64,000 nucleotides of DNA from an uncultured Photobacterium sp. (GTDB lineage: Bacteria; Pseudomonadota; Gammaproteobacteria; Enterobacterales; Vibrionaceae). The notes beneath the pieces were generated by a model. It was not told where the DNA came from. It saw only the letters and a program-made list of their open reading frames with translations, and made no database searches. The stretch spans positions 3,592-67,591 of the forward strand of contig NZ_CAMRAN010000016.1 in the NCBI RefSeq assembly GCF_947039875.1, read 5' to 3'. The position numbers and the translations under genes were made by a program. This document shows, piece after piece, positions 1 through 20,923 of the stretch (the first letter of the stretch is position 1; each line of letters starts with the position of its first letter).

Positions 1-512
1 CCTAAATCTAGCGGGCCGAATGAATCAGGTAAGTATTGTTGCAGTGTCATGGGTTCGCGTTGTGGCAGTTGAATCATCATGTCGTTCGCTGATGTTAATT
101 CATTCATAAACTGACGGCAGTGACCACAAGGACTGTAGTTAATAGTGACATCTTTAATGCCCACTTCGCCCTTGATCCATGCATGGCTAATGGCAGATTG
201 TTCAGCATGAATAGTACAAGCCATGCTTGCGTTTTCAAATTCCATATTAGCACCAAAATATAAGCGGCCAGATGTGCCACGTACAATTGCACCAACATAG
301 AAATTAGAAATAGGGACTACAGCATAGGAAGCAGCAAGAGGAAGGAGGGCCAAGCGAAGTTCAGTATCAGTCATGTGCGTTGTTGATAATAAACATTCGA
401 ATTGCTCAGGACTGATCGTTGAGTCGAAATTTGAATCTTCGATAATAGGCTTTAAAGCTGACGCCAATTCAGCAGGTAATAAGCTTAATGCTTTTATAAC
501 ACGTGCGTACAT
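1..512 (-). CDS. cdd: Cytidine deaminase, partial (C-terminus runs off the left edge of the window)
   Basis: The minus-strand reading frame from the ATG at 512 gives [26 protein letters not shown]...[33 protein letters not shown]...[14 protein letters not shown]...[12 protein letters not shown]. The HAE and PCxxC zinc motifs and the layout match two-domain Cdd. It sits downstream of yohJ/yohK as in E. coli. Confidence 0.85.
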
Positions 513-727
513 TGGGTGTTACTCCTTCATTGTTTATGGCAAAACATTCTATGTGAATCACAATGAGTTAGAAGTGATCTTGATCACACTGTTGGTTTTG
601 CCATTACACCTATTACATTACTGAGAGTGGCGTCACACTTGTTTCTGTAACAAAGCATACAACATTTCAATGACTTAGTAAAAATTGACCGTTTTGTATG
701 CTTTGTGCTCAATCGTGCTATTGCTGA

Positions 728-1414
728 TCAAGCATGTCCAAAAATACGTAATAGTAGAGGAAACATCAGTGGGGCTAATAAGGTGGTCATAATGCCGCAA
801 ATAACCAAAGCTAAAGAACTAAATGCACCTTCTTGATAGTTTTCTTCTACGGCTTTTGCTGTACCTAATGCATGTGACACCGTACCAATTGACAAGCCTT
901 TTGCTAGTGGATGTTTCACGCGGAATAATTTCATGATTGGGTAACCTAATACCGCGCCAAATAACCCGACAATAATCACCATTGCAGAGGTAATCGCAGG
1001 AATCCCTCCAATTTGCTGAGAAGCCGCCATTGCAAGAGGGGTAGTGATAGATTTAGGTAAAATACTTGCTGCAAGTTGAGCATCCGCACCCATTGAAAAA
1101 GCAATCGCAGTACCAAAGGTCATTGATAACACGCTACCGACAAAACAAGAGGTTAAAATGGTTTTCCACTTACTGCGAATAAGCCCAATTTGTTGATATA
1201 GCGGGAAAGCTAATGCAACAACCGCAGGACCCAATAAATAGTTAATCACTTCATTTTGTGCAAAATAGGTCTGATAAGGCACTTCCAACCATTTTAAGGC
1301 CAAAATCATAACAATAAGCGTGATTAAAAGAGGGTTGAAAAAAGGATTTTTAATTTTCATTGCTAAATAACGTGCAACATAAAAGCAGACTAAGGTTGCC
1401 ACCAACCAAATCAT
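728..1414 (-). CDS. yohK: LrgB/YohK-family membrane protein
   Basis: The 228-aa polytopic membrane protein contains LGPAVVALAFPLY and SITTPLAMAAS, typical of the LrgB family. Its start overlaps the stop of the upstream LrgA-like gene by 4 nt. Confidence 0.85.
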   Translation of the reverse strand: MIWLVATLVCFYVARYLAMKIKNPFFNPLLITLIVMILALKWLEVPYQTYFAQNEVINYLLGPAVVALAFPLYQQIGLIRSKWKTILTSCFVGSVLSMTFGTAIAFSMGADAQLAASILPKSITTPLAMAASQQIGGIPAITSAMVIIVGLFGAVLGYPIMKLFRVKHPLAKGLSIGTVSHALGTAKAVEENYQEGAFSSLALVICGIMTTLLAPLMFPLLLRIFGHA

Positions 1415-1755
1415 GACTGTTTCTCCTTATGGTGTACCGCTAGGCCAATAACAATTAACACAATAACGGTGCTGCCAAGGGTACTTGCAAAAATGATCGC
1501 TGCGTTATTTTCAATGACACCTAAATAATTCATTAAACCAACACCAACAGGTACAAATAACAATGCCATGTGTTTAATTAATAAATTACAGGTACTTTCA
1601 ACCCACTCTGCACGACAAATGCCAGTGACAAGAGCAATAAAAAGAATAAATAAGCCGATGATACTGCCAGGAACCGGTAATCCAGACCAGTGCTGAATGC
1701 CTTGTCCTAAAAAGAAACAGATCATGACGATAGCAAATGAGCGTATATAATTCAT
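1411..1755 (-). CDS. yohJ: LrgA/CidA/YohJ-family small membrane protein
   Basis: The product has four predicted TM helices (PGSIIGLFILF, LLFVPVGVG). I prefer the internal ATG at 1755 (MNYIRSF...) over the long ORF start at 1794. Confidence 0.8.
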   Translation of the reverse strand: MNYIRSFAIVMICFFLGQGIQHWSGLPVPGSIIGLFILFIALVTGICRAEWVESTCNLLIKHMALLFVPVGVGLMNYLGVIENNAAIIFASTLGSTVIVLIVIGLAVHHKEKQS

Positions 1756-1876
1756 GGGTGGTATGACTCTTAAATATTTCCAATCATCATACAAATAAAC
1801 ATGATAATTGTCACACTAATTAATGGCGGTTAATGAACTATATTGGTTTCTGTTGATAAAACAAGCATTAATGTTG

Positions 1877-2398
1877 CTATATTGTCAAAATGTACCCACC
1901 AAGCAGTAGTGTAAATGTAATGATTATTAAGGTGCAAATAGTTGCGTAATTAGTCTTTATTCCCAAAGGGAACGGTTTTATTGTGTGCTTTTTTGTAATG
2001 TTTGACCATGACGGTGCTTTTTTTAATGCAGGTGTTTCATTACGCACTGCTGCGGTATTGGGTAATGACACGCGAAAGCCATAACTAGGGATAATATAGA
2101 TAGGTATCGCCATTTTGCCATTGCGAAGTAATTTTTTAGACAGTGATAATAATAGAATATTGAGATCATAATGATGATCTCCGCTATCCTCGTATGCATT
2201 GGGGTAGGTGAAGGTATAACGATAGACCGACTCAATACTGACAACTTCTCCCGCAAGATGGCAAAGAGAGGCTAAAAAACGGGATTCGTCATTAGTTAAC
2301 AAAGTTTGTTGATTATCATGCCATCGAAGTAGCCTATCTTCAGGAATAAAATCAATACCTTCAAAGCGATAGCATTTTATTGCCGTTTTCGTTGTCAT
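1877..2398 (-). CDS. ToxR/CadC-like winged-helix regulator with a C-terminal membrane anchor
   Basis: The N-terminus (YRFEGIDFIPEDRLLRWHDNQQTLLTNDESRFLASLCHLAGEVVSIESV...YGFRV) resembles an OmpR/PhoB-type DNA-binding domain. The C-terminus has one TM helix (ATICTLIIITFTLLLGGYILTI). An AGGTGG Shine-Dalgarno (SD) precedes the ATG at 2398. Confidence 0.55.
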   Translation of the reverse strand: MTTKTAIKCYRFEGIDFIPEDRLLRWHDNQQTLLTNDESRFLASLCHLAGEVVSIESVYRYTFTYPNAYEDSGDHHYDLNILLLSLSKKLLRNGKMAIPIYIIPSYGFRVSLPNTAAVRNETPALKKAPSWSNITKKHTIKPFPLGIKTNYATICTLIIITFTLLLGGYILTI

Positions 2399-2563
2399 TA
2401 TCCACCTACTTGTAAGCCCTTCGAACACAACCTCACTCGATAGCATTAAGTGTTGACGGAATTACGATAATCATCAAATAACAGATCTCATTAATAATAA
2501 AAAAGCCCATCACAAGATTCCTGTGATGAGCTTATTGTATTTTTAAATATGTAACACCATGAA

Positions 2564-3985
2564 TTACATCAATTTACTAATATAGTCATATAGTGATTTC
2601 ATGATCTTCATTTTGTGCTCATTTGACTGACAATCGAGCGCTGCTGCTTCAAAGTTCTCCATGTATTTGGTCATGTTCTCTTCAAAGAAATCTTGGCAAT
2701 GATGCTTCCAACGTTGTTGTTCTTGATAGGTGAGTGTTAATGGGTAGTTACGCGCACGATAGCGGAACAACAGCGGTTTAATACGCTCATCTTCAACATT
2801 GATTTCCAATGTAGCCAGTGACTCAACCTCTGTTTCACGAATAATATCCATCGTTGAGCGATCAGCGGTGGAGAAGAAACCATCGTAAAGCATGGTATCA
2901 ACGTTATCACTATTGGCGTATTCACGTTTAACACTGAACATTTCCAGCAATTTAGCCCGTATTTCAGGGTGCTGCTTTAATAACGCCAAATTTTTAAGGC
3001 ATAACTCACGATCAATACCGAGTCGCGCTGCATCTTCTGCTTTTAATGTTTTGGCAGGGGCGAGCACAGGACACTTGTTTAAATGCACTTCTTTAATCGG
3101 GACGGGGAGTTCATCTGGGCCAAGATCGATACGCTTAGTGTATAAACGCTCACGCAGTTGATCGGCATTCATCTCAATCAATGGGGTCGGATCTTGGGCT
3201 AGGTTAACGCAGATCACCGCATTTTTGTTATCAGGATGCCACGCCATCGGCACGATCCAACTGGTATTGCCACATTCAGTGCCAAACATACCCGATACAT
3301 GCACAATCGGGGTTAGATCAACAATATCAATCAGATCTTGTAATTTACGCTTATGACGCAACTCAAACAGGTAATCAAACAGTTTAGGTTGGTTGTGCTT
3401 TAAAATCTTCGCCAGCTCAATCGTGGCGTACACATCAGCCATGGCATCATGGGCATTCGCGTGTTCAATGCCATTGGCGATAGAGAGCTTCTCAAGCTTA
3501 AAGCTCGGACGACCTTCATCATCTGTTGGCCAGTTAATGCCATCAGGACGCAATGCATAACAAGTACGCATGATATCGAGTAAATCCCAACGAGAGTTAC
3601 CGTTTTGCCACGCCCAGCCATAAGGATCATAAAAGTTACGGTATAACGTATAACGGGTCACTTCATCATCAAAGCGCACGTTGTTATAACCAATGACACA
3701 GGTATTTGGCTTTGATAGCTCAGCATGAATTTGCGCAATAAACTCAGGCTCTGATAAACCCTTCTCCATTGCCTCTTGTGGTGTAATACCTGTAATCAAA
3801 CAGGCTTCAGGTGAAGGTAGGTAATCGGCTGGTGGCTTACAATAGATCACCAAAGGCTCACCGATGATGTTCATCTCCATATCGGTACGCACCCCTGCAA
3901 ACTGGCAAGGGCGATCATTTGCTGGACTGGCACCAAAGGTTTCGTAATCAATCCAGTATAAGCTTGGTTCGTTGGTTTTTTTCAT
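2564..3985 (-). CDS. sbcB: Exodeoxyribonuclease I
   Basis: The 473-aa protein begins FYWIDYETFG-type (SLYWIDYETFGASPANDRPCQFAGVRTD) and carries the DEDDh exonuclease motifs (GYNNVRFDDEV, HDAMADVYATI). Confidence 0.95.
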   Translation of the reverse strand: MKKTNEPSLYWIDYETFGASPANDRPCQFAGVRTDMEMNIIGEPLVIYCKPPADYLPSPEACLITGITPQEAMEKGLSEPEFIAQIHAELSKPNTCVIGYNNVRFDDEVTRYTLYRNFYDPYGWAWQNGNSRWDLLDIMRTCYALRPDGINWPTDDEGRPSFKLEKLSIANGIEHANAHDAMADVYATIELAKILKHNQPKLFDYLFELRHKRKLQDLIDIVDLTPIVHVSGMFGTECGNTSWIVPMAWHPDNKNAVICVNLAQDPTPLIEMNADQLRERLYTKRIDLGPDELPVPIKEVHLNKCPVLAPAKTLKAEDAARLGIDRELCLKNLALLKQHPEIRAKLLEMFSVKREYANSDNVDTMLYDGFFSTADRSTMDIIRETEVESLATLEINVEDERIKPLLFRYRARNYPLTLTYQEQQRWKHHCQDFFEENMTKYMENFEAAALDCQSNEHKMKIMKSLYDYISKLM

Positions 3986-4143
3986 AGTTTTCCCAAAAGC
4001 CGTTGGCTCAATATCAAGTTACTGCAATCCATGACACGCTGCATATCAACTTAATATTTTCTTAAAGCAATACGTTATAAAGCTAAGTATCCCGTAACTG
4101 ACCTAATAGAGGCAAGTTTTTAGGGAAAATAAAGCGTCCCCCT

Positions 4144-4216
4144 CGTCATTCTCTACAGTGAATGCCCAACTCCCCGTCATTCCCTACAGTGAATGCCCGC
4201 GAGGGCGATAGGGAAT
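4144..4216. repeat. Tandem 24-bp direct repeat plus an 8-bp inverted repeat at the left junction of the island
   Basis: CGTCATTCTCTACAGTGAATGCCC (4144-4167) recurs as CGTCATTCCCTACAGTGAATGCCC (4175-4198) with one mismatch. ATTCCCTA (4179-4186) pairs with TAGGGAAT (4209-4216). Confidence 0.6.
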
Positions 4217-4261
4217 CTACTATCCGCGTGTTGTAGGGATTATTAGTAGTGGTATCGTTAT

Positions 4262-4917
4262 TGCCGTAAAAGTAAATTCATTATTGAAAAAACGGACTTA
4301 GACCGCATTAAGAGACAACACGTAGGTAAAGCACCAGAAGTAGGAACCCGAGTACCAACGTTTTCAGAACTCAGCATGATTTGGTTGGCTATCGAACGTA
4401 GCCGCGCTAGCTCATCTAATAAAGCGTTGCATCAACTAACCATGTTGTGGGGCAGTGTCTTTCAGAACTGCGCCTTGCTCGTCGTAGCCATTTTGATATG
4501 GAAGCAGGTATATGGACGGTACCGAAAGAGCTCAGTAAAACCAATACGCCAATAAGACGCCCAATTCCCACTAAAGCAAGGGCGATATTAGAGCGGGTAA
4601 TGGCAACTTATGATGATGTGTTGTTCCCTGGTGGTGATCTTGATAAGCCGATAACCATTTCAGCAGCTAACCGTTATATCCGCCGTATAAGAGATGGTTT
4701 ACCCATTGAAGATTGGCGAACTCATGATTTTAGACGTTCGTTATCTACTGGTGCATCAGAACTAGGTGTAATGCCACATGTGGTTGAAAAGATGCTTGGC
4801 CATGAGCTAGGTGGGGTATTAGCTGTTTATAACAAACATGATTGGTTAAAAGACCAGTTAGAAGGGTATGAGCTGTATGCTGAGAAGTTGGATAGTTACT
4901 TTTGTGCTTTCACTTGA
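4262..4917 (+). pseudogene. P4/CP4-57-type tyrosine integrase fragment, lacking its N-terminus and frameshifted
   Basis: One frame from 4262 reads ...VPTFSELSMIWLAIERSRASSSNKALHQLTML. The sequence then continues in another frame from about 4447 as GQCLSELRLARRSHFDMEAGIWTVPKE...HDFRRSLSTGASELG...EKMLGHELGGVLAVYNKHDW, which holds the catalytic R, HxxR and Y region. No N-terminal arm-binding part is present upstream. Confidence 0.8.
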
Positions 4918-5196
4918 GGCGTGGTATCTGTTAAATGTAGCTTCTTTGAGTCAAATATTGTCAGTTTTAATATTTGTACCGGATCGTGGAATCGAATCTT
5001 TGAAGGCTGTGCCAGTAGATTTTACAATCTGTTCCCTTTAGCGGAAACTCCACCTAAAACTTAACTATATTCTAAGCTATTGTGCGGAGAGATAAAGGAG
5101 GAAAACTATGCTTATCATGCGAAATTGTATTTACTTCACGCGAACTTTTTGTCTGTCAAAAGAATTGTTTAAATTAATAGCCCTGTTCATAGAAAT

Positions 5197-5227
5197 AAAC
5201 AAGCGATCCAATTGGTTCGCTTGTTTA
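5197..5227 (-). terminator. Rho-independent terminator candidate for the patatin/small-ORF operon
   Basis: AAACAAGCGATCC-AATT-GGTTCGCTTGTTT forms a 13-bp stem with one mismatch. On the minus strand it is followed by TTTATTTCT, about 25 nt past the stop at 5252. Confidence 0.55.
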
Positions 5228-5251
5228 TCGGGGAAATTTAAACACATTCAA

Positions 5252-5434
5252 TTATTTGTCATTTGGATTTTTTTGCTTGTTTGAAATGTGAATAATTTCT
5301 GGGTTCTCGTCTACTTCAGACTGAACGAGATCAATGATATGATCTAAACCAATCTTTAAGTTTTTGAACTTCTTATTTTTTTTCCTAGGAGCCATTTTAG
5401 GTTTCTCTGTGTGTTGCATTTCTATACATGTCAT
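5252..5434 (-). CDS. Small 60-aa protein coupled to the upstream patatin gene; function unknown
   Basis: A GGGAG SD lies inside the last codons of the upstream gene, 8 nt before the ATG at 5434, and the gap is 5 nt. The N-terminal half is basic (KPKMAPRKKNKKFKNLK) and the centre is acidic (SEVDENPE). Confidence 0.5.
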   Translation of the reverse strand: MTCIEMQHTEKPKMAPRKKNKKFKNLKIGLDHIIDLVQSEVDENPEIIHISNKQKNPNDK

Positions 5435-5439
5435 ACTAG

Positions 5440-7320
5440 TTACTCCCTATTTTGCTTTGTGCCTATCTCTGCTGAAAATTCACTAATTGCTGTAGAAGCG
5501 ATGTAGCAGTACAAAGATAGTATAGAAGCATTGAAGTTATGCTCGTAAAGTGCATTAATCACATCCCTACTATCATCGTATAAAAAGTAATCGTCAAAAT
5601 CAATGGCCAGTACTGCTTTAGGTTTTATATTGTGCTTTGTAATTTCAGAAAAATTTATTAAATGCTCATCCAATTTATTAGTGCTGCCGTGAATAACCCC
5701 TTTCTCATTTAGCTCTCTTATACTAAAGATAGGAATTGTTATGATAACTTTCAATCCTTTCTTTACAAGAGCATTTCGATTAGTACTCATTGATAGAGAA
5801 TCTTTCATATGGCGGGTTAAATGGGTGCCACTTGGAACATAACTTTTATTGAAGTCAGGTAGGTAAATCATTGGTATCCCTGTATTGAGACAAATACCTG
5901 ACGCTCCTTCTAAACTATCAAACTCAAGATAACGATCTAGATCGTTGTCCATATTGTAATGGTAAACGATCTTGCTTGTATTCAGATTATGGTCTACTGA
6001 CGCAATCAAGCAAGCTCTAGAGTTTTCAAGATTGCCAATTATTCCCCCCCCATATTGAATAAATTGTGTTAATACTTTTGAATAAGCTGTAATGAATGAG
6101 TGGCTAATATCCTGTAACCAGTTTCGTGCGCTTCGTTTTGGGAAAAGAGCATAGTTGTCAATTAACGAATCTCGAGTTTGATTGTAGGCATTATTGTAAA
6201 GTTCAAATACATCATTTTCCTTAAGTGAAAATGAGAGGGTTTTTACTGGACCTGTATCAATCTTTATCAGATCCAGTCCTTTAACACTGATATTCTCTAT
6301 AGAACTGGCTCCCCACAGTGCTGTAATTGCTAAATTTTTGAAATATGTTATAGGATTGTCAACATCTTTTCTAATCCGGAGTGATGGAGATAATTTGACA
6401 CCGATTGTATGCTTCAGGTCATCTAGAAGTAGGTGCTTTCTATAGCTCCAAGCTGGAAAATTACTCAGCATCCCACCATCAACGAATTGATAAATATTTC
6501 CATTTATTTCAATTTTTTTACATTTAAAAAATAATGGTATGGAAATACTTGCTAAAATTCCATCTATTACTTTAACGTTCTTAGTTAATTCGTTTTCATG
6601 GGAAAAAATTGTAATTTCACGAGTGCTAATATCAGATGAAATTAGTTTTAAGTGAAGGTTACTTATCTTAAACAATTGATCAAACGTTAGATCTTTGGCC
6701 TTAATAGATGCAGGCGCAGATGTTAAAAGAGGGGAGTCTTGGATTATCGTCTCAAGCCATTTTTCAATAGATTTTGTAGATAACAGCCCAAAACCCCACA
6801 TAACAAATGTTGCCGGTATAATCGTTGGTATGATAATTATCAAGAAAGATACTATTGTTATGGAAGCAAAAGCTGCTCTGAGAAATTTTCTAAGATAAGA
6901 TAACGAAACCTTTTTGCTAAGATTAAAAGCTATTATAGAAATTGAAAAAGTAAGTACTATATACAGTAGGATTTCAAAAGATACAAAATATACCAAAGCA
7001 GAATAAGGTAAAATAAAGATGGTAGCTATCTTTAAAAATAACGTAATATAATCTTTTAGTGAGCTGAAAATTATCGTTTTTAAATTATGTGGAAGTTTAC
7101 CTTTTTTAGTTTTTGGATTATACAAGTCATCTGCACTGTATCCTAACGCTATCATAGTCGCTATGATAGATCCTGCTGATGTGCCTGCTAATTTATCTAC
7201 TCGTAAGTTATATTGTTCTATAGCCTTAAAAGCACCAATATGAGCGATACCCTTAGCGCCACCCCCTTCAAAAACAGCATTACAAAACATTTTTAATATT
7301 AACTTCTTAGTAATATACAA
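5440..7320 (-). CDS. Patatin-like phospholipase with inserted TM helices and a GAF-like C-terminal domain
   Basis: The oxyanion motif FEGGGAKG, the nucleophile elbow AGTSAG (Ser48) and the catalytic Asp motif VDGGMLSNFP are all present. Between the Ser and Asp motifs lie hydrophobic stretches (ATIFILPYSALVYFVSFEILLYIVLTFSISIIAF; ASITIVSFLIIIIPTIIPATFVMWGFGLL). The last ~200 aa show a GAF-like strand pattern (RACLIASVD...IVYHYNM...EGASGICLNTGIPMIY...VIITIPIFS...AVLAIDFDD). An alternative start exists at 7290. Confidence 0.85.
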   Translation of the reverse strand: MYITKKLILKMFCNAVFEGGGAKGIAHIGAFKAIEQYNLRVDKLAGTSAGSIIATMIALGYSADDLYNPKTKKGKLPHNLKTIIFSSLKDYITLFLKIATIFILPYSALVYFVSFEILLYIVLTFSISIIAFNLSKKVSLSYLRKFLRAAFASITIVSFLIIIIPTIIPATFVMWGFGLLSTKSIEKWLETIIQDSPLLTSAPASIKAKDLTFDQLFKISNLHLKLISSDISTREITIFSHENELTKNVKVIDGILASISIPLFFKCKKIEINGNIYQFVDGGMLSNFPAWSYRKHLLLDDLKHTIGVKLSPSLRIRKDVDNPITYFKNLAITALWGASSIENISVKGLDLIKIDTGPVKTLSFSLKENDVFELYNNAYNQTRDSLIDNYALFPKRSARNWLQDISHSFITAYSKVLTQFIQYGGGIIGNLENSRACLIASVDHNLNTSKIVYHYNMDNDLDRYLEFDSLEGASGICLNTGIPMIYLPDFNKSYVPSGTHLTRHMKDSLSMSTNRNALVKKGLKVIITIPIFSIRELNEKGVIHGSTNKLDEHLINFSEITKHNIKPKAVLAIDFDDYFLYDDSRDVINALYEHNFNASILSLYCYIASTAISEFSAEIGTKQNRE

Positions 7321-7495
7321 TAATTCGCTGCATCATACATTGATATGGGATGTGTTGCAAAGGGAGATGGTTTTAGTACAAGTTCAATTTAATACACTGT
7401 TGTGTGTAATTTCAGTCTCAATAATAACTATTTATTATTAAAAGGATTTTTATTAGTGGTAAGCTATTAAAACTTTAGTTTATGGGGCTGATACG

Positions 7496-7705
7496 ATGGG
7501 TAATTATAGTATTACTTATGCGATTTATAATCCTAGGTGGGTATATGGAGTCGATGAAAAACTTTTAAAAATAGGTTCTTCTGAAATTGCACCTGAAGAT
7601 TATGAGCAATACATGCATGGTTCGATATTTTGTCCTAAGTGTTTTACTCCCTTATCAAGGAACCCATCGAAAAAGAATATATCAAAAAATGCTAAAACAA
7701 CATAA
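7496..7705 (+). CDS. 69-aa ORF with a CPxC element, possibly the N-terminal stub of a truncated gene
   Basis: MGNYSITYAIYNPRWVYGVDEKLLKIG...IFCPKCFTPLSR ends about 60 nt before the integrase 3' remnant. The SD is weak. Confidence 0.3.
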   Translation: MGNYSITYAIYNPRWVYGVDEKLLKIGSSEIAPEDYEQYMHGSIFCPKCFTPLSRNPSKKNISKNAKTT

Positions 7706-7767
7706 TACATCTGTTGGAATTTAGACACTTTGCTTTATGCGGGTTTTTCATTGCCAGGAAAACAAGT

Positions 7768-7808
7768 CAGTTAGAAGGGTATGAGTTGTATGCTGAGAAG
7801 CTGGATAG
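7768..7808 (+). repeat. Second copy of the integrase 3' end (a remnant of another integrase gene)
   Basis: Positions 7768-7808 match 4855-4895 at 39 of 41 bp. They read QLEGYELYAEKLDS then a stop soon after. Both differences are synonymous Leu codon changes (CTG/TTG). Confidence 0.75.
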
Positions 7809-7895
7809 CAATATAAAATAGATTTATCATTGATTGGATATGTAATTTATTTGGTATAAAATTGGTTTTAATTAAATATTACAAGTGGTTAAAAG

Positions 7896-9929
7896 ATGAA
7901 TGCTATAATTGAGACCAATATTATAAGCGACACTATAGTATTATCACAAATTGATAAAACCGTTAATTTTAAAAATTGTCTTGGAGTTTTTCAAGGTGGT
8001 GGATGTAAAGCTCTTGCGTTTGTTGGGGCTTATGGAGAAGCTAAATCTCGCGGTGTCAATTTTTCTGAAGTAGCGGGGACATCTGCTGGATCAATATTTG
8101 CTGCATTGATAGCTGCTGGTGCAACGCCTCAGTATATGGAAAATTTAATAAAGGATATTGACTTTAATAGATTTAATCACCCTATAGATAAGAATTTATC
8201 AAACAAATATGGATTTAATGAATATAAATATTCTCGAAAAATAGCAGGAAGGCTTTTTAAAAAAAATAAGATAATATCTAATATTCTAAACTTTGTAGAT
8301 AATATTGGTCTGTTTTCATCTGAAGAACTAGATCTGTGGTTAAATGATGAATTAAAAACTCTTTTAAATATTGAAAATAAAACAGTTACTTTTAAAGATT
8401 TAAAAATACCTCTTCATGTGATTGCGACTGATCTTATTAAAAAGAAGCAAAAGATTTGGAATGAAAATACTCCAGATGTTTCAGTCGCGTATGCTGTTCG
8501 CTGCTCTTGTAGTATACCTTTATATTTTCAGCCTGTTAATATGGAGTTTGTTGATGGGGGGTTAGTGAGTAACTTACCTTCATTTTCTTTAAATAATGGA
8601 GTAGGGCATTTTGAAAAAATATTATGCTTTACTTTGAGTAGTAAACCAGAAGAAATTAAATGTATAAAAACTTATTTAGAAAGTATTGCAGGCTCTGTTG
8701 TTGATGGTGCAATTCAAATACAAGAAACGCTTCAATATAATACATATAATATTAAAATTAATGATTTACCAGTTACAACAACAGGATTTGAAATTCTTAC
8801 TCCTGAGTTAATTCAAGATACTATTTCTATAGGTAAAAGAGCTGCAGCAGAATTTTTTAACGATGAAACAACTAAAATAAGTGAAAAAGAAGATATATCA
8901 ACACCAAAATTAACCAAAGATTATATTTTGAATTCGGTTGTTATGGAGGATGTAGATTGTCATAATCATATATATATGTGTTTTAATGATACAAAACATA
9001 TATATGGATTATTTCCTACAATATTGAGTTGGTTGGTTGAAAAAAAGATCAGAATAACATTTATAACTAGGTATATTAAAAATATTACAACTGATCATGA
9101 TAGTGTTTTGCATGAAAAATATCGAAGAAAACTAATTGAAAGATTTGGTATTCATTTAATTGAGAGAGAATCTATTCCTTTTGATGCATTTATATTTGAG
9201 GGTGATTACAAATATAATGATAAGGCGATATTCCTTTATGATAAAGACGACTTAGAATTTAATATAGGACATGGTGCAATATATGATGGTAAATATAACT
9301 TACATATCATATCATCATTAATAAAAATGTTAAATTTGACAGATAAAGATAAAAAAAATCATGACCTTATCATATCTAATTTAAAGAACTTTACTATTGA
9401 AAAATGTTCAAGTAAACAGCATATAAGAAAGCTAAAGAATGTACAGCAATACAAAGGAAAAAATGTTTCAATTAAAGAAATAAAACTTAATCTTTCTAAT
9501 GTTAAGTTAATGACAAAATATGTTAAATCATATAAGTACAACCAAATAGATAAGCTATATGAAATATTAAATAAAAACGGAATTTCATTATTTGATTACT
9601 CAGTAATAACTTTTTCTGATGGTTTACAGTTTTTAATTACACCTATTATTGTAGAAAAGCATGGAAATGATTATATTGTAATAAAAGGGAATAGTCGTTT
9701 AAATTATGCGTATAGAGAGTTAGAGTTAAATGGATATTTTAGTGCGGTTGTAGCTAATAAGGTATCAATTAACTTACCATCTATCGGATGCTATCCTACT
9801 TCAGATTGTATTATAACTACTATAAATAAAGAGGGATCAACCCGATATGAAAACTGGAGTTATCGCAATTTTAGACGTGTTGAAGAAACAATAAGAAATC
9901 CGAGTGATTTTTTAGAGGAGGAGATTTAA
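7896..9929 (+). CDS. Three-part fusion protein: patatin-like phospholipase, unknown middle domain, ParB/Srx-like C-terminal domain
   Basis: The N-terminus has FQGGGCKA, AGTSAG (Ser63) and VDGGLVSNLP. Residues ~340-520 carry no motif I recognise. The C-terminus reads ITPIIVEKHGNDYIVIKGNSRLNYAYRELELNG, matching the ParB N-terminal/sulfiredoxin-fold pattern (hydrophobic strand, Y-x-h-h-x-G-x-x-R). Confidence 0.85.
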   Translation: MNAIIETNIISDTIVLSQIDKTVNFKNCLGVFQGGGCKALAFVGAYGEAKSRGVNFSEVAGTSAGSIFAALIAAGATPQYMENLIKDIDFNRFNHPIDKNLSNKYGFNEYKYSRKIAGRLFKKNKIISNILNFVDNIGLFSSEELDLWLNDELKTLLNIENKTVTFKDLKIPLHVIATDLIKKKQKIWNENTPDVSVAYAVRCSCSIPLYFQPVNMEFVDGGLVSNLPSFSLNNGVGHFEKILCFTLSSKPEEIKCIKTYLESIAGSVVDGAIQIQETLQYNTYNIKINDLPVTTTGFEILTPELIQDTISIGKRAAAEFFNDETTKISEKEDISTPKLTKDYILNSVVMEDVDCHNHIYMCFNDTKHIYGLFPTILSWLVEKKIRITFITRYIKNITTDHDSVLHEKYRRKLIERFGIHLIERESIPFDAFIFEGDYKYNDKAIFLYDKDDLEFNIGHGAIYDGKYNLHIISSLIKMLNLTDKDKKNHDLIISNLKNFTIEKCSSKQHIRKLKNVQQYKGKNVSIKEIKLNLSNVKLMTKYVKSYKYNQIDKLYEILNKNGISLFDYSVITFSDGLQFLITPIIVEKHGNDYIVIKGNSRLNYAYRELELNGYFSAVVANKVSINLPSIGCYPTSDCIITTINKEGSTRYENWSYRNFRRVEETIRNPSDFLEEEI

Positions 9930-10612
9930 TGAACAATTTAAGTTATTTAAATTTTATTTGTAAAAAAAATCCTAATATAAACATATTGAGGGTTTTTGAT
10001 TTTTCTTTTTCCAATAAATTTCAAGAAATAAATGAAGAATTAACTGTAGATGAATTTGAAGCTGTAAAAAATTGTATAAAATATAAAAATAAATATGATA
10101 TGAGTTTTTGGGAATCATTATTTATATTAATGAAAGAAGGGCAGACTGTTAGTAAAAGAATGCTTAATCATTCAATTTTTCATAATGAGAATAATAAATA
10201 TATTAATATTAAGCGTGATGATTTTTTTGATTATATCAAAACTGATATTGATGGTAATGTAGCATTAAATTCTAAAGTAGTACTTAAAGATGGAACTGTA
10301 ATGCATATTCCAATGTTAGACTTTAAAATACCATCAAATAAAAGTAATTTAGACATTGTTCATAATGTTATTGAAATGTTTAACTTAGATGGATTAATAC
10401 TTAATAGTGGAAAGTCTTTTCACTTTATTGGATTTGATTTGATAACTGAAAATGATTTAATTAATCTACTTTCTAAGTTTATTCTTCTTCACCCTATCTC
10501 AGATAAAGCTTGGGCTGCTCATCAAATAATTGAACGCTCAGCTTCATTAAGAATATCAAAAAAATATGGTAAATATCCGTATTTAATGGAAAGTAAAATA
10601 AATCTATCTTAG
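9929..10612 (+). CDS. 227-aa protein of unknown function, translationally coupled to the patatin-ParB gene; motif spacing resembles primase-polymerases
   Basis: Its ATG overlaps the upstream TAA (TAATG) and a GGAGGAG SD sits 7 nt upstream. The C-terminal half contains HIPMLDFK, then about 30 aa, LNSGKSFHFIGF, then about 30 aa, LLHPISDKAW. The AEP resemblance is an inference only, because the DxD motif is incomplete. Confidence 0.75.
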   Translation: MNNLSYLNFICKKNPNINILRVFDFSFSNKFQEINEELTVDEFEAVKNCIKYKNKYDMSFWESLFILMKEGQTVSKRMLNHSIFHNENNKYINIKRDDFFDYIKTDIDGNVALNSKVVLKDGTVMHIPMLDFKIPSNKSNLDIVHNVIEMFNLDGLILNSGKSFHFIGFDLITENDLINLLSKFILLHPISDKAWAAHQIIERSASLRISKKYGKYPYLMESKINLS

Positions 10613-10664
10613 ATTATTTTAAAAATTTAAACCAAAGCGATCTCTCACCAAGATCGCTTTGTTT

Positions 10665-11006
10665 CTAAAACCGCTTTCCAAACCGACTGGTATTATCTTT
10701 CCATTCTTCAACTGCAGAACGTAACCAACGTAAGGGCATGAGTGTAATTGGTTCAGGGAAGCCACGTGTTTGTCGCCACTTATAAATTGTTGCTCGACTT
10801 GTGATTTGAAACATTTCTAATACTTCAACGTGACTAATTAAAAGATGCGTTGATTGCTCATTAAGTTCAGCATAAGTTTTTGCTGGTGGCGGTGAATATC
10901 GGTAGTTGCTTTGTTGTTTACTTTTGTAGTGTGACGGTGTCACGTTTAAGTTGTTTTCTGTGGCATAAGAAATATTTACAGTAGGGTAGCTGTTGTAATC
11001 GAACAT
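10665..11006 (-). CDS. AlpA/Vis-family phage-type helix-turn-helix (HTH) regulator or excisionase-like protein
   Basis: The C-terminus (LISHVEVLEMFQITSRATIYKWRQTRGFPEPITLMPLRWLRSAVEEW) is the typical AlpA HTH. I prefer the start at 11006 (MFDYNSY). Confidence 0.75.
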   Translation of the reverse strand: MFDYNSYPTVNISYATENNLNVTPSHYKSKQQSNYRYSPPPAKTYAELNEQSTHLLISHVEVLEMFQITSRATIYKWRQTRGFPEPITLMPLRWLRSAVEEWKDNTSRFGKRF

Positions 11007-11016
11007 GTTTGATTCC

Positions 11017-11172
11017 TTATTGGCATGTTGTACTAACAAAATTAGAAAGACGAACCCGATTCATGGTGTGCCAGCAACGGGCATCACCTTTAAATAAGCC
11101 TCCCGTCTTTAATTTTGCACATCCTTCCGGTAATGACTCACCACAATGTTGGCAAGTATCTAATGAGCTCAA
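11017..11172 (-). CDS. Possible 51-aa Cys-rich (zinc-ribbon-like) ORF just upstream of alpA
   Basis: A TTG start gives LSSLDTCQHCGESLPEGCAKLKTGGLFKGDARCWHTMNRVRLSNF. The stop lies 10 nt before the alpA ATG. I saw no ATG start and no clear SD. Confidence 0.3.
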   Translation of the reverse strand: MSSLDTCQHCGESLPEGCAKLKTGGLFKGDARCWHTMNRVRLSNFVSTTCQ

Positions 11173-11371
11173 ATAAATAACTCTTTATTTTTAATTGGTT
11201 AGGTTCTTCTGGGCGCTCAGAAACCGCAAACGAGTCAGACTCTCGGGAAATAAAAATTTTCTGGCCTTCTTAGCCACCACCGAGGTTGGTGATTAAGTCC
11301 ATTTTCGGTGGTGAAGGGCTGAGCGTGATGCGTAACGCTTATCTTAAATATAATTTACTTGCCATCATCCG

Positions 11372-11442
11372 TTTAGCCATAAACGGCTAAATTCTAACAA
11401 TTAGCCAGATATAGCTAAATTACGAAAGAAAATTATGGCTAA
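11372..11442. promoter_or_regulatory. Cluster of TTAGCC-N6-GGCTAA-type palindromes (candidate operator or iteron set)
   Basis: TTTAGCCATAAACGGCTAAA (11372-11391) is a perfect 7+7 palindrome. TTAGCCAGATATAGCTAA (11401-11418) is imperfect. A further GGCTAA half-site lies at 11437-11442. Confidence 0.4.
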
Positions 11443-11467
11443 TATGAATCAACTCTATTTAATTGTA

Positions 11468-11534
11468 CTAATGAGTAAGTAATTACACATTAAAGTGTTT
11501 AATCCTCATTAATGTGTATTAAATTACTCATTAA
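11468..11534. repeat. Imperfect 26-bp inverted repeat (a long hairpin or cruciform candidate)
   Basis: CTAATGAGTAAGTAATTACACATTAA (11468-11493) faces TTAATGTGTATTAAATTACTCATTAA (11509-11534), separated by a 15-nt spacer. Confidence 0.5.
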
Positions 11535-11712
11535 TACTTTAAATAAGTAATTGGTGTATTTTTATTGTGGGTGTTTGAATCATCAGATGTCGCTTGATGG
11601 TTGGGTGTGATGCGTAACGTGGTTTAAATATGAAGGGAATATTGATTTAAAGGATATAAAAAAAGGCAACTCAAGACACAAGATTCTGTGTATTAAATCA
11701 CCTTTTATTCGG

Positions 11713-11856
11713 TTAGCAAATGGCTTGCTTTTTTTTCTCACCGGATAATTCTGGTGCAGATGTTTTGTATTTATTCGACATTAATGTTTTAGCATTTTTT
11801 AAGAGTAGACTACGCATGTCTTGAGCCGATAAACGCTTAGTTTTTGTTTTGTTCAT
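11713..11856 (-). CDS. Possible 47-aa basic small protein
   Basis: A strong GGAGGA SD precedes the ATG at 11856. The product is MNKTKTKRLSAQDMRSLLLKNAKTLMSNKYKTSAPELSGEKKKQAIC. It lies downstream of the 178-aa gene on the same strand. Confidence 0.35.
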   Translation of the reverse strand: MNKTKTKRLSAQDMRSLLLKNAKTLMSNKYKTSAPELSGEKKKQAIC

Positions 11857-11924
11857 GGTTCCTCCAACTCATTCTTATATGGTTGTATTATAGCCTAACT
11901 AAAAGTAGGAATGAAGATTTAAGT

Positions 11925-12461
11925 TTAATTCAACAATTCAGCTAATATACGCTCTTGAGCGGCCTGTAATGACTCATAGCTTGCATACATTGCTACATTT
12001 GCATCAGATGTCGCCTCAAAGCCAAATTGTTCATAATGTTGGATAAGATCTTGGTGTGGCTGGACAACATATGCACCAACACTTTCTTCTCTTAATGCAA
12101 GAAAGTAAGTGGCTGCGATGACGACTAGTGTTGTTAGTCTTCCATTCAGAGGGTGAGTTCTATTATTTCTGACCAGTGATTCAATTAAGAAAATATGTAA
12201 TTGGCCATCTGATGCAGCATAAATACCAAGCATTGCGCCATCAATGTCTAATTCAGATACTAATCGAAATCCTAAATGAAAAGAATCTTCATGTAAGTAA
12301 TGCCCATGCATAGCAAGCCAATTGAGGACGGTCCGATCATCTCGAACGAGTGCTTCAAAGTCATTATCAGTTAGGCTTTGAACACTAAGACCTAAATCAA
12401 CTTGATCAATAAATTGTTGTAAGAATGAAACCGTTTCTTGAAGGTCTTGTTGTATAGTCAC
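11925..12461 (-). CDS. Hypothetical protein with a GNAT-like acetyltransferase fold (tentative)
   Basis: The 178-aa product has LHIFLIESLVRNNRTHPLNGRLTTLVVIAATYFLA (an R-x-x-G-x-like segment) and a C-terminal QHYEQFGFE, reminiscent of GNAT motifs A and B. Confidence 0.45.
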   Translation of the reverse strand: MTIQQDLQETVSFLQQFIDQVDLGLSVQSLTDNDFEALVRDDRTVLNWLAMHGHYLHEDSFHLGFRLVSELDIDGAMLGIYAASDGQLHIFLIESLVRNNRTHPLNGRLTTLVVIAATYFLALREESVGAYVVQPHQDLIQHYEQFGFEATSDANVAMYASYESLQAAQERILAELLN

Positions 12462-12648
12462 TGATTGATCCTGATATGACGTTTTAATATTAGTATTATA
12501 TTGAGGTTATGTTGGCATGAATCGCCAATAATGATGGAAACAGCACCTTTATCTAAATACCTTATAGAGGTGCACAGTTTTACGTGACCACTTTAGTCGT
12601 GAGTGTGCTGGCTGTCGTAATTTATTGAGCGACTATAAATATAGTTAA

Positions 12649-13671
12649 TTATTCTTTCATTGATGAATTATGTAATTTAGTCGGGGGATTACCCGTCCAA
12701 CGTTTAAATGCACGAGAAAAGCTGCTCAATTCAGAAAAACCTAATTGATAAGTTATTTCTGTCATGCTTATTTCTGGTTTTTTTAATAGGCGAATAGCTT
12801 TATTTAAACGGTAACAATCAAGAGTACTTGTAAAGCTTGTATTAACACTTGCAAGACGCCGAATTAGGGTACGAGGACTTATGTGTAGTTGTTGAGCAAC
12901 ATAATTAGCATTAATATCTTTTAGAGATTTACATTGCTCAAATATATTACAAATTTGTAAGCAAATATCACTTTTTTTCAAATTTTCAACACGTTGATGT
13001 ACAAAGGTTAAATTATGATAATGTATTTCAGGGTGATAATTTTCAACTGTTGGAATGAGATCTTTTTCTTTAAAGGTTAGTTTTATGACTTTTTTGTTGA
13101 TTAATTTTGTACAATTGTACCTCTGCTTTAAGTAATTTTTTTCACTTTCATTATAGTTTAGATCTGGCGCATATAATTGAAATGGAATGGCTTTTTTATT
13201 ATTTAAATTCCGCATCATTTCTAACAAAGTGCAGATAACAATAATATAGCCTGATTTAGTTACACGAGAGTCTTTTGGGAAAGGGTTTTGAATGAATATG
13301 ATTTCAATCTCATCATTGTTTTGATTAAGTGATAAATTTATTTGTGGTGCGATATAAATGAAATTATCACAAGTAATCTTTAGGAAATCATATAATGAGC
13401 GACATGTAGAAAGAGCAATGGAATAACATCCAAAAGTGAAAGGAGTAAAATGTTTTGCTGCTTGAATTGACATTTGAAAATTTTGGTCATTTTCAATGAG
13501 TTCAGAATGAAGCATTCGTAATAAACGAATGTCATATTCTCCCTCATCATTCGCTTTAATATTTTTATAAGATTCTGCTATTTTTATATTGGATTCATTT
13601 GTTTGCGCTGTAAGGATCGTATACCAACCGGCATGTAAGAAGTAATGATTAGTGTTTTTGTTGCTGAGCAT
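12649..13671 (-). CDS. AraC-family transcriptional regulator
   Basis: The C-terminus has the double HTH (ISPRTLIRRLASVNTSFTSTLDCYRLNKAIRLL...MTEITYQLGFSELSSFSRAFKRWTGNPP). The N-terminus is a ~230-aa putative ligand-binding region. Confidence 0.85.
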   Translation of the reverse strand: MLSNKNTNHYFLHAGWYTILTAQTNESNIKIAESYKNIKANDEGEYDIRLLRMLHSELIENDQNFQMSIQAAKHFTPFTFGCYSIALSTCRSLYDFLKITCDNFIYIAPQINLSLNQNNDEIEIIFIQNPFPKDSRVTKSGYIIVICTLLEMMRNLNNKKAIPFQLYAPDLNYNESEKNYLKQRYNCTKLINKKVIKLTFKEKDLIPTVENYHPEIHYHNLTFVHQRVENLKKSDICLQICNIFEQCKSLKDINANYVAQQLHISPRTLIRRLASVNTSFTSTLDCYRLNKAIRLLKKPEISMTEITYQLGFSELSSFSRAFKRWTGNPPTKLHNSSMKE

Positions 13672-14530
13672 TTTGTTAACCTTAGCACTAATAGTTAATC
13701 AATCATTAAAATAGTCATCTTTTTGTGTGACCTATTTTAACAATTCTATTAATTATTGTCGATGAAGTGGGTCACAACTTGGTCTAATGTCGAAAATTGA
13801 CAACCATATGGCATTTTTTGTCAATGATGATCGGTTCCTGATTAACGATGTTATGTTTATTTATCAAGATACTAGCACCTTATTTATTAATAAAAGGTCA
13901 CCCAATGACTAATTTAATGCTGGTAGATTAAATAATGTAAGGTGAATTGCTTTATATGCATTATAAGTAAAGGAATATATTACATGTAAATAAGGTTAAT
14001 TATTAAATGTAAGGTGTTATTTTGACATTTTAGGACACTTACTTATCTATAACTGTCATGAAAAATAAAATGAGATATAAGTCATAGTTAATATTTAAGT
14101 GTTATGTTTATATGTTGATAGATATTTAATTTTAAGTGATATGTTTAAGGGGGGATAATAATGATCTTCAAATAATTTAAGGGTTTATAACTGTGGTTTT
14201 TTGCTATTGCGGAATAAGGTACGTAGTGAAAATGCTCTCAAATAAATAATGAATCTAAAAGTGTTGTGTAAAGCTAAACAATAATTTTGTCTACATAACT
14301 ATTTATATAATCGATATAGAACAATAACTTACTACTAAAGTTTAATTCGTACAGATAATTTCAAATCTAATCCTAAAGTAAAAAATAAAGCTCTTAAATT
14401 ATAAAGATTTAAGTGTTTGATATTATAAGTAATATAGGGGAGCGCTCTCAGGAAATGGTTTTAAATTGACGGTGTAGATTATAAGTAACGAATAGTTTTT
14501 TCATTAATAAAATAAATAAAAGAGTGTTTT

Positions 14531-15808
14531 ATGAATAAAATAAATACGGTATCTATGCTAGACGCGGTGTCTAAAATAAAATCAGGTGATCGTCTGTGGG
14601 TTAGCGGGGCTATTGGTATTTCTTATGAGTTTTTAACGACTCTTGAAAAAATGAGTTCAGAGCTTAAAAATGTTGAAATAATCAGTGGAATGATTTTAAA
14701 CCCTAAACAGGAGTTTATGTCTCCAGCATATAAAGGTCGAATTTACTATCGAAGCCTTTTTTTAGGCCCCTTGGAACGTGTAATGCGTCCTTTAGGTAAT
14801 ATGGAATTAAATACGACTCATTACAGTAGTATGAAAGATTTATTTTTAGAATTAAAACCAAATGTTGTGGTGCTAGAAGTTTCTCCGCCAAATGAGGACG
14901 GGTTTTGTAGTTTAGGGCCAATTGGTGGATTAGGTTCTCAGTTAATGGCGAGCTATGCAAATAAAGTTATTTTGGTCATAAATGAAAATGTACCGCATTG
15001 CGGCGGGTATCGTAATTTTATTCATATTGATAAAGCCACAACAATCACTACATCAAAGCTCCCATTAATTGCAATTCCAACTGAAACAGTAAGTGATATT
15101 GATACTCAAATTGGGGAAATTGTTGCTGATATTATTGATGATGGATGTACGTTACAAATCGGTATTGGTTCAATTTCTAATGCTGTTGGTTATGCATTGA
15201 AAAAAAAGAAGAATATAAAGATTCATACTGAAATGCTAACTAGCTCAATGGTTGAGTTAATTCAAGCGGGTGCAGTAGATCCAACCGTAAATGTCACTTG
15301 TACTTTAGCAATGGGAGATCAAAACTTATTAGATTATTTGAAATCAGCAGATAATTTAGTTATCGAACCATGCTATGACGTTACAGACCCATATATTGTC
15401 TCTAAGCATGATTATTTTACCTCTGTTAATACTTGCATTGCTGTTGATTTAACGGGGCAAGTCACTGCCGAAGGTATGGGGTATAGACAAATATCCGGGA
15501 CGGGAGGGGCATACGATTTTGCTCGTGCAGCGAAAATGTCCAATGGTGGAAAATCTATTATTGCGCTTAAATCAATGTATACCAACAAAGAAGGTAAATT
15601 AGTTTCAAATATTATGGTGGGATTTCCTGAAGGTACACCAATTACTTATTTACGTTCAGATGTTGATTATATTGCAACAGAATACGGTATTGTACGTTTG
15701 ATGAATAAGTCATATGAAGAACGAACCAAATTATTAATCAGTATTGCTCACCCTGATTTACGTGAATCCTTAAAAGACGAAGCAATCAAAAGTGGTTTAA
15801 TTCATTAG
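14531..15808 (+). CDS. Acetyl-CoA hydrolase/transferase-family CoA-transferase (4-hydroxybutyrate/short-chain acyl-CoA transferase-like)
   Basis: The 425-aa product contains LQIGIGSISNAV, IHTEMLT (the catalytic Glu context) and ISGTGGAYDFARAA (the GxGGxxDF motif). Confidence 0.85.
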   Translation: MNKINTVSMLDAVSKIKSGDRLWVSGAIGISYEFLTTLEKMSSELKNVEIISGMILNPKQEFMSPAYKGRIYYRSLFLGPLERVMRPLGNMELNTTHYSSMKDLFLELKPNVVVLEVSPPNEDGFCSLGPIGGLGSQLMASYANKVILVINENVPHCGGYRNFIHIDKATTITTSKLPLIAIPTETVSDIDTQIGEIVADIIDDGCTLQIGIGSISNAVGYALKKKKNIKIHTEMLTSSMVELIQAGAVDPTVNVTCTLAMGDQNLLDYLKSADNLVIEPCYDVTDPYIVSKHDYFTSVNTCIAVDLTGQVTAEGMGYRQISGTGGAYDFARAAKMSNGGKSIIALKSMYTNKEGKLVSNIMVGFPEGTPITYLRSDVDYIATEYGIVRLMNKSYEERTKLLISIAHPDLRESLKDEAIKSGLIH

Positions 15809-15867
15809 AATTCCTAAGTGGAGAGATGATGTTCTTTCCATTTCATATTACATATAAGGATATATTT

Positions 15868-17961: not shown

Positions 17962-17975
17962 TTGGAGAATAGATC

Positions 17976-19145: not shown

Positions 19146-19391
19146 TATTAGGAACAACAAAAATAGCGTCTAATTAACGATAAATTCTAATTTAAATCGG
19201 TTTGTGTCATAGTTTTTCTGAATAATAAGGGAGAACTATGACCAATTCGATAATTACTTTTATCAAATAACAAGAAATAGGACAATTTCTTTATCGCTAA
19301 ACTGAAATATTCATGTGTTCTGATATGACATTTGTTGTGGCTTAATGAACTTGGAGTAGGTGAAATATTCTGTATTGTTTGTACCTTACAA

Positions 19392-19973: not shown

Positions 19974-20033
19974 TGATATTCACATTGTTAAGAAGATCAA
20001 TAATCTATCATTTAGTATTAAATAACACAATTC

Positions 20034-20899: not shown

Positions 20900-20923
20900 A
20901 ATGTATTCCTTTATTATCTGGCT

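Follow-up and report, generated by a model that had tools for sequence, protein, structure and literature searches.

The DNA analysed here, hereafter the window, is a stretch of 64,000 nucleotides (nt) from an uncultured Photobacterium, and the block that adjoins its sbcB gene, extending to about 12.5 kb, is very probably (we would put the probability at roughly 0.8) the decayed left end of lambdoid temperate prophages of Photobacterium that insert at the 5' end of sbcB. The source is a member of the phosphoreum clade. With P. piscicola it shares 99% identity in SbcB and 96.6% identity in the DNA of window positions 1-4901, which hold sbcB and a fragment of an integrase gene (int). The initial annotation, made from the sequence alone, had described the block as two tandem P4-type satellites or islands, since immobilized, that act as a container for two patatin cassettes. 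The comparisons below agree that this is mobile DNA of acquired origin in which the mobility genes are broken and the cargo is intact, and that more than one element contributed to it, a scrap of a second int being present. The cargo does lie intact in a slot, but the container appears to be the stump of a lambdoid prophage rather than a P4-type island; likewise, several elements with broken mobility genes are represented, but they are not P4-type satellites or stand-alone islands.

The sbcB neighbourhoods of 80 species genomes were compared, covering 10 kb upstream of sbcB, together with proviruses from IMG/VR. The loci carry L-numbers (L009 is P. aquimaris, L023 P. satsumensis, L038 Photobacterium aquae and L076 P. 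piscicola, while L094-L097 are IMG/VR proviruses); protein families were called with Pfam, PHROG, NCBIfam and PADLOC, and RNA families with Rfam. In 29 of the 80 genomes a full or partial copy of int occurs no more than 10 kb from the sbcB 5' end, and 12 of these copies are full length. The complete gene encodes an integrase of 387 amino acids (aa) with Arm-DNA-bind_3, SAM_3 and Phage_integrase domains, and in P. phosphoreum and its relatives 179 bp separate its start from that of sbcB, the two genes being divergent. Beside sbcB in P. aquimaris, int is accompanied by alpA, a gene for a regulator of 130-152 aa, cI, cro, cII, O-like and DnaC-like genes and Q, while the same int and alpA are joined in 30-67-kb IMG/VR proviruses by endolysin, Rz spanin, tape-measure and tail genes. 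Thus, the element is a lambdoid temperate phage and not a satellite, and it is on this gene content that the P4-type identity fails. The immunity, replication, lysis and structural genes present in these relatives are absent from the window, which thus holds a remnant and not a prophage. The relatives cover every stage of decay: at one end the whole early region still adjoins sbcB, at the other a stump resembling that of the window is left. The block was also proposed to be acquired rather than ancestral, and this holds: the 6-7 public contigs with identical SbcB or AraC all carry the identical island, P. piscicola, the nearest species, has different cargo between the same flanks, and more distant Photobacterium species have no element at the sbcB site. 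A second metagenome scan with SbcB returned a single close contig, with a flank of 519 bp.

The geometry of the insertion site is set by the following features (window coordinates, strand).

2564-3985, minus: sbcB (exonuclease I), intact, 473 aa, Pfam RNase_T and Exonuc_X-T_C; a host gene that carries the phage attachment (att) site at its 5' end

3941-3952, minus: att core GATTACGAAAC, sbcB codons Asp13-Tyr14-Glu15, in exonuclease motif I (Asp-x-Glu)

3948-4091, minus: the first 38 nt of sbcB and 106 nt upstream, a unit duplicated when an element occupies the site

4092-4259, plus: segment of 168 bp and 48% GC with no assigned origin, in the place of the phage P arm and int codons 1-172

4259-4902, plus: truncated integrase, aa 173-386 of 387, without the arm-binding and SAM-like domains

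7768-7821, plus: scrap of a second int, its last 17 codons (aa 371-387, 7768-7818) and stop

As sbcB is on the minus strand, the island sits upstream of its start codon. In loci L011, L023 and L048 the 5' end of sbcB recurs as a direct repeat, together with 106 to >249 bp of upstream sequence, and the similarity of this second copy to sbcB ends at nt +37 to +45; the L011 copy of the 3948-4091 unit (L011:2487-2630) is 89% identical to that of the window. In L094-L097 orphan copies begin exactly at the equivalent of window position 3948 (sbcB nt +38) and continue unbroken through the equivalent of 4092-4259 into the same truncated int, a newer element having inserted between sbcB and an old stump structured like the window's. 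All seven of these far or orphan copies lose their similarity to sbcB within the core string, breaking inside GATTAYGAAA, which encodes Asp13-Tyr14-Glu15. The breakpoints indicate that element-derived DNA already begins inside sbcB, at about 3941-3952, and not at 4144, where the start of the island had been placed initially. That annotation had found no tRNA gene at the junction, and a scan for tRNA and tmRNA genes found none in the entire 64 kb; the absence is expected because this integrase lineage targets the 5' end of sbcB.

The same target is used by enterobacterial phages. Sf101 of Shigella and phage 2851 of E. coli insert at the 5' end of sbcB with a published 13-bp attP, TTTCACGATTACG, and the region upstream of sbcB is reported to be highly variable, with decayed Sf101-like integrases, in 8 out of 10 genomes of S. 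flexneri (PMC4159516). In E. coli O157 sbcB is among four common sites of Shiga toxin (Stx) prophages (PMC8309913), and in V. cholerae it is listed as a prophage-only insertion site (bioRxiv 10.1101/2024.07.25.605194). The core in the window overlaps the 13-bp attP of Sf101 and 2851, and in the attP of Sf101 sbcB-like codons 1-15 are present, with divergence after GATTACG. The full-length 387-aa integrase is 46% identical to Sf101 Int (E 6e-124), and the AlpA protein of the window is 40% identical to the AlpA-family protein of Sf101 over 47 aa (E 7e-12). Integrases of the Sf101 type occur in 583 of 5426 complete E. coli genomes, in one example 181 bp from sbcB, with phage sequence starting about 46 nt inside the gene. 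The block in the window thus has the hallmarks of an sbcB prophage of the Sf101/2851 type: a homologous Int, a left junction in the sbcB core (GATTACG, in the Asp-Tyr-Glu codons) at which the phage supplies a new sbcB 5' end with start codons and promoter, and an AlpA-like gene convergent with int. In the intact relatives, as in the enterobacterial phages, int is divergent from sbcB across a spacer of 179-181 bp. It lacks the phage gene set and the far attachment site (attR), being merely a stump, and it differs from those prophages in its host family, the Vibrionaceae, and in the length of AlpA (124 aa here, 63 aa there). Furthermore, whereas int and alpA overlap tail to tail in the enterobacterial phages, 2-7 kb of variable cargo separates them in the Photobacterium lineage. 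The closest integrase of an E. coli Stx phage (48% identity) was considered as the counterpart and set aside; it targets tRNA-Arg and not sbcB, so target choice varies within the integrase family, and the sbcB-targeting relatives are the Sf101 group. Islands and prophages that target dusA also combine a tyrosine integrase with the 5' end of a conserved protein-coding gene, not a tRNA, but the integrase lineage and the target gene differ (PMC4482086).

The integrase at the junction is in two pieces in different frames (4259-4456, aa 173-237; 4450-4902, aa 236-386), 95-97% identical to the 387-aa integrase, and the frameshift, one C missing after 4456, is specific to the window; the initial observation of a missing N-terminus and a frameshift near 4447 was thus accurate. 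So was that of a second integrase surviving as 41 bp: 39 of 41 nt are identical between 4855-4895 and 7768-7808, and at the protein level the scrap covers aa 371-387. The int breakpoint is found with different cargo in the window, L076, L003, L008 and L094-L097, and breakpoint and 168-bp segment together are common to the window, P. piscicola, P. iliopiscarium, P. malacitanum and four proviruses; thus, the truncation is old and the cargo changed later. Between species the int and alpA flanks are 93-97% conserved while the cargo differs. In L092 a fragment of alpA (aa 53-124) is fused to a fragment of int (aa 305-387), and short int-3' and alpA-3' fragments recur inside the slots of L003, L007, L086, L087 and L101; the 41-bp scrap in the window is a further scar of this type. 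The 168-bp segment, which is common to all stumps with this breakpoint, contains two 27-nt direct repeats (4141-4167 and 4172-4198) that have no further copy in the window, confirming the junction repeat of the initial annotation. The 31-bp repeat unit at 4141-4198 is present in two copies in the window, L008 and L011 and in one copy in L076, L003 and L004; it is possible that these repeats are binding sites for the arm domain of the integrase or for an accessory factor.

In the intact loci the alpA homologue lies 2-7 kb past the 3' end of int and is convergent with it. The 22 slots between int and alpA (2.0-7.0 kb, 76 open reading frames, ORFs) have contents that are unrelated between genomes, and their ORFs match PADLOC models that include Septu PtuA (1.6e-187), PARIS AriA and PDC-M01A, among others. 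The int-alpA slot is, by this content of known defence systems between conserved phage genes, a defence hotspot of the Photobacterium phage lineage. Defence hotspots of P2 and P4-like type in temperate phages and satellites have reportedly been described by Rousset et al. in 2022. The Photobacterium slot resembles these in its fixed position between conserved phage genes and in its interchangeable cargo with known defence systems; it differs in that another phage family and other flanking genes, int and alpA, are involved and that the hotspot here outlives the phage. In the window the slot holds the following features.

5195-5228, unstranded: inverted repeat I9 (17 bp, perfect loop, 94% complementary), which lies downstream of orf60 and pat1 and is likely to be a terminator

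5252-5434, minus: orf60, directly downstream of pat1, no family match, called as a gene in public contigs

5440-7320, minus: pat1, patatin-like phospholipase of cargo set 1, 616-626 aa, Pfam Patatin 5e-28

7496-7705, plus: orf69, a small ORF between pat1 and the int scrap, no family match

7896-9929, plus: pat2 of cargo set 2, 677 aa, with a patatin domain (Pfam 2.6e-25), a PLD/HKD-like middle and a conserved C-terminal domain

9929-10612, plus: AEP-like protein (PF24387), whose gene overlaps pat2 by ATGA and is translationally coupled to it

10630-10664, unstranded: hairpin (I23) between the convergent AEP-like gene and alpA, resembling a bidirectional terminator

The pairs pat1 with orf60 and pat2 with the AEP-like gene are putative defence cassettes and reasonable candidates for such a role. 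Both patatin proteins retain the GGGxxG, GTSAG and DGG motifs, and pat1, pat2 and the AEP-like gene are equal in length to their homologues. The product of pat1 has a hydrophobic insert, membrane-spanning segments and a C-terminal half without family assignment, and its full-length homologues (35-76% identity) are restricted to Vibrionaceae. The pat2 family, in contrast, is widespread, and many of its members carry an inactive HKD domain (PF24402, iHKD). Its genes are always accompanied by the AEP-like gene, including in P. damselae and a Vibrio species, where this pair is all that was inserted. In a structural model of the pat2 product with a predicted local distance difference test score (pLDDT) of 87.9, the N-terminal half is closest to CapV/CapE (E about 1e-11), effectors of the cyclic oligonucleotide-based antiphage signalling system (CBASS), and to PlpD, and the middle domain resembles proteins of the PLD/HKD fold. 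The C-terminus (9380-9929), some 180 residues, is the most conserved part of the family and includes an E-G-N-S-R-L string in which G and R are invariant; these residues of the window protein have no Pfam match. A single-sequence model of the AEP-like protein reached a pLDDT of 38.7 and was not used. CapV and CapE are thus matched in patatin fold and catalytic motifs, but pat2 has additional HKD-like and C-terminal domains and the AEP-like partner, and the scores are far below family cut-offs (CBASS_lipase, 37 against a cut-off of 200). No CBASS cyclase was found among the scanned ORFs of 4.4-12.5 kb, a set from which the 40-59-aa ORFs at 4.9-5.1 kb were excluded, and assignment to CBASS was rejected as no cyclase gene lies beside the patatin. 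A literature search for the combination of patatin, AEP and iHKD returned nothing relevant, and no relatives of pat1 or pat2 were found in IMG/VR.

To the right of the cargo, alpA is followed by a series of smaller remnants, with phage debris extending to about 12.53 kb.

10665-11039, minus: alpA, an AlpA-family excisionase- or regulator-like gene (HTH_17 8e-4, Phage_AlpA 9e-3, below the Pfam cut-off)

11017-11172, minus: C-terminal 50 codons of a phage regulator (130-152 aa in full; phrog_536), with a deletion breakpoint at about 11166

11176-11900, unstranded: att-distal-end block, 95% identical to L011:2777-3454, which is 147 bp from the far att copy of L011

11204-11345, plus: structured non-coding element of 145 nt, once per element in most elements at the sbcB att site

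11465-11537, unstranded: inverted repeat of 29 nt within the 11176-11900 block

11713-11856, minus: orf47, within the same block

11925-12461, minus: orf178, a phage gene (phrog_4350, 1.5e-18)

12506-12533, plus: scrap of a Q-like antiterminator gene, 28 nt with 26/28 matches

The AlpA-type gene that had been placed at the right end is 94% identical to alpA of intact prophages. The repeat-rich non-coding block reported beside it is indeed a non-coding block, but it is not notably repeat-rich, containing at 11.2-11.9 kb one 29-nt inverted repeat, one 21-nt direct repeat and the conserved 145-nt element. The gene initially called GNAT-like is orf178, which has no GNAT match but matches phrog_4350. 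Its homologue gp23 in the lambdoid phage mEp460 sits between int and xis, and by that position orf178 looks like, and probably is, slot cargo of a third phage; the match at 12506-12533 is no more than suggestive of a remnant of a Q gene. The window lacks the corC-like right flank seen in L011. In P. piscicola (L076, 1-6166) the region right of the equivalent stump contains a DnaC-like fragment, a Q-like gene and a Septu-like pair (AAA_15/21 and HNH), as well as a fragment of a KAP NTPase and a gene of the leukocidin/hemolysin family.

The 145-nt element is 79-95% identical between loci in which its flanks are unrelated. The consensus folds with -33 kcal/mol on the plus strand and -21 kcal/mol on the minus strand; its predicted stems contain invariant G-U pairs, which can pair on the plus strand only, and at several other pairs one-sided changes from G-C to G-U keep the pairing. 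A covariance model found 15 further plus-sense matches in 14 other loci (two of them in L023), including the small int-less elements of L023 and L048, while an Rfam scan of 3.5-15 kb at E<=1 returned nothing. The element may be a phage-borne small RNA.

Further arrangements at this site were seen in other genomes. In L023 (3382-10028) copies of the sbcB 5' region, 241 bp each, flank two small int-less elements, each with one 145-nt element; the int-less elements may be further remnants or may have been mobilized in trans. The provirus L094 (4006-9459) has, between a tail-gene module and its orphan att copy, an unrelated 434-aa integrase, a regulator of the HTH/metalloprotease type and an HNH-containing gene pair, and more than one kind of element is thus stacked at the sbcB locus. 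Directly upstream of sbcB in L038 (7889-9718) there is a CRISPR-like array of about 30 copies of a 28-32-nt repeat with a 60-bp period.

Composition was assessed with a 300-bp sliding profile and with per-gene statistics against 23 backbone ORFs (GC 38.8+-3.6%, GC at third codon positions, GC3, 29.3+-5.4%). An abrupt change at about 4.1 kb, as initially claimed, is not seen: the GC content of 4.1-4.9 kb (42-48%) exceeds the window mean of 36.8%, and the fall sets in at about 4.95-5.0 kb. The description of the coding sequence at 5.2-10.6 kb as AT-rich applies to pat2 (GC 27.7%, z -3.1) and the AEP-like gene (23.1%, z -4.4), which are clear outliers, but pat1 is only mildly low (33.5%, z -1.5, GC3 27.1%). 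Among the genes further right that had also been called AT-rich, the AraC gene (30.0%, z -2.5) is the only other clear outlier; the CoA-transferase, FadB-like and thiolase genes of the fad-like operon are within the normal range (z -1.0 to +0.9). The intergenic sequence at 13.7-14.5 kb has a GC content of merely 23-26%.

In the more distant species the genes directly next to sbcB are an efp-like gene, two csp genes, a DUF496 gene and rsmF, which correspond to 28.3-33 kb of the window. The intervening 12.6-28.3 kb is absent from their sbcB neighbourhood and is thus not part of a backbone shared at this locus, in keeping with the suggestion that genes further right are additional accretions. This stretch of 15.7 kb (12649-28300) contains genes for AraC, a CoA-transferase, a FadB-like protein, a thiolase, two TetR regulators, a short-chain dehydrogenase/reductase (SDR), a methyltransferase, a DUF417 protein, a HAD protein, an MFS transporter and a GNAT protein; no AraC relatives were found in metagenome contigs.

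The history that we propose would begin with an intact phage whose 387-aa tyrosine integrase, which has an arm-binding domain, recombined at the core in the Asp13-Tyr14-Glu15 codons. Such a phage supplies its own first ~13 sbcB codons and a promoter, such that sbcB remains intact, and int then lies about 180 bp from the sbcB start and is transcribed divergently. The gene order of the intact prophage is int, the cargo slot of 2-7 kb, the convergent AlpA-like gene, the small regulator, cI, cro, cII, O, DnaC-like, Q, and the lysis and structural genes. Deletions then removed the backbone, int losing codons 1-172 and later acquiring the frameshift, while everything from the small regulator onwards disappeared together with the far att copy, leaving a stump presumably unable to excise. 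A second, related phage would have contributed the last 17 codons of int, its cargo (pat2 and the AEP-like gene) and alpA. The most likely route to the junction of the two cargo sets is integration of this phage in tandem, followed by a deletion from the end of cargo 1 to codon 371 of its int; orf178 and the Q scrap would probably be left over from a third phage. In sister species the same dead int and alpA flanks enclose different cargo, which suggests that cargo now turns over by homologous recombination with incoming related phages through those flanks. The cargo itself probably acts as an abortive-infection defence in which the patatin phospholipase would be the effector that damages the membrane once infection is sensed, with the C-terminal domains and the AEP-like partner as the putative sensors.

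Several observations weigh against this account. The window contains no second copy of the sbcB 5' region (attR), so its right end and the number of contributing phages are deduced from scraps; the far att copy is indeed gone, as expected from the initial statement that the right-hand boundary is not defined. In the loci with intact int no far att copy lies within 10 kb either, and those prophages thus exceed the length of the flank. In the tandems observed elsewhere the old stump is distal to the newcomer, whereas the old int of the window is proximal, which fits integration at the far att site or homologous insertion better than re-use of the core in sbcB. The 4092-4259 segment is left outside the account, the Q scrap is just 28 nt long, and no homologue of orf178 was found in the Photobacterium loci compared. 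As to defence, no other int-alpA slot was found to contain either patatin cassette, and the similarity of the cassettes to PADLOC and NCBIfam models is limited to the generic patatin domain.

It could be argued that there was never a tandem: a related phage, infecting the cell or already resident in it, would have passed the int scrap together with pat2, its AEP-like partner and alpA straight to a single resident stump, by way of a single homologous crossover within alpA and a single illegitimate join where cargo 1 ends. That the flanks do recombine follows from the conservation of dead int and alpA around different cargo noted above, and the int-3' and alpA-3' fragments that recur in five other slots would fit such captures. 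However, tandem arrays and a scar in which alpA is fused to int are directly observed at this site, and the non-colinear debris to the right of alpA (the end block, orf178 and the Q scrap) is easier to explain with several stacked elements; we consider the single-stump origin possible but the less likely of the two. The view put forward initially, of a tandem pair of P4-type satellites or integrative defence islands that had no phage of their own and became immobilized afterwards, is very improbable. It could draw on an arm-binding architecture of the integrase that is common to P4-type integrases, on the presence of an AlpA-family gene, and on the small int-less elements flanked by att repeats in L023 and L048, but the intact relatives are full lambdoid prophages and the closest characterized Int/AlpA pair is that of Sf101. 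Moreover, Pfam, PHROG and NCBIfam gave no match in 4-12.6 kb to P4-like genes (primase/helicase alpha, psu, delta, sid, cos), nor was a packaging gene found in the region, and a P4-like satellite was rejected on both gene content and site. The phage-inducible chromosomal minimalist islands known as PICMIs share the bacterial family, the combination of int with alpA and a small size (PMC10803314); the PICMI model, however, requires a DUF3987/DUF5906 primase and its prototype, PICMI115, adjoins fis, while the element here adjoins sbcB, has no such primase and has full prophages as its intact relatives. The AEP-like gene does not supply the missing component, being a PF24387 protein linked to pat2, and the PICMI assignment was rejected.

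The other alternative concerns the cargo alone. The patatin genes may not be defence genes at all, but phage morons or host-directed lipases that act in lysis, membrane remodelling or virulence. Known defence models cover nothing past the patatin domain, the best full-length NCBIfam match is a Legionella effector family, far below the cut-off, and pat1 is membrane-spanning, all of which would suit this alternative. In contrast, relatives have Septu, PARIS and other defence genes in the same slot, pat2 and its AEP-like partner form a patchy module of two genes in unrelated contexts, the fold of pat2 is closest to CBASS effectors, and the cargo was kept intact while the phage decayed. We therefore regard a role outside defence as rather unlikely and favour the reading of both pairs as candidate defence cassettes. 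A stronger proposal, in which dead int and alpA are kept as a recombination landing pad that captures and stacks defence cassettes of incoming related phages, both patatin cassettes are undescribed anti-phage systems and the 145-nt element is a new phage-borne regulatory RNA, is speculative and, taken as a whole, improbable.

The feature itself is of an ordinary kind, and it extends known patterns to a new host group while leaving current understanding unchanged. The sbcB 5' att site known from phages of E. coli and Shigella is in use across both Photobacterium and Enterovibrio, probably because the invariant Asp-x-Glu motif of exonuclease I contains its core. The int-alpA defence slot can be mined in Vibrionaceae genomes, and the window provides a clear case of cargo that has outlived its phage.

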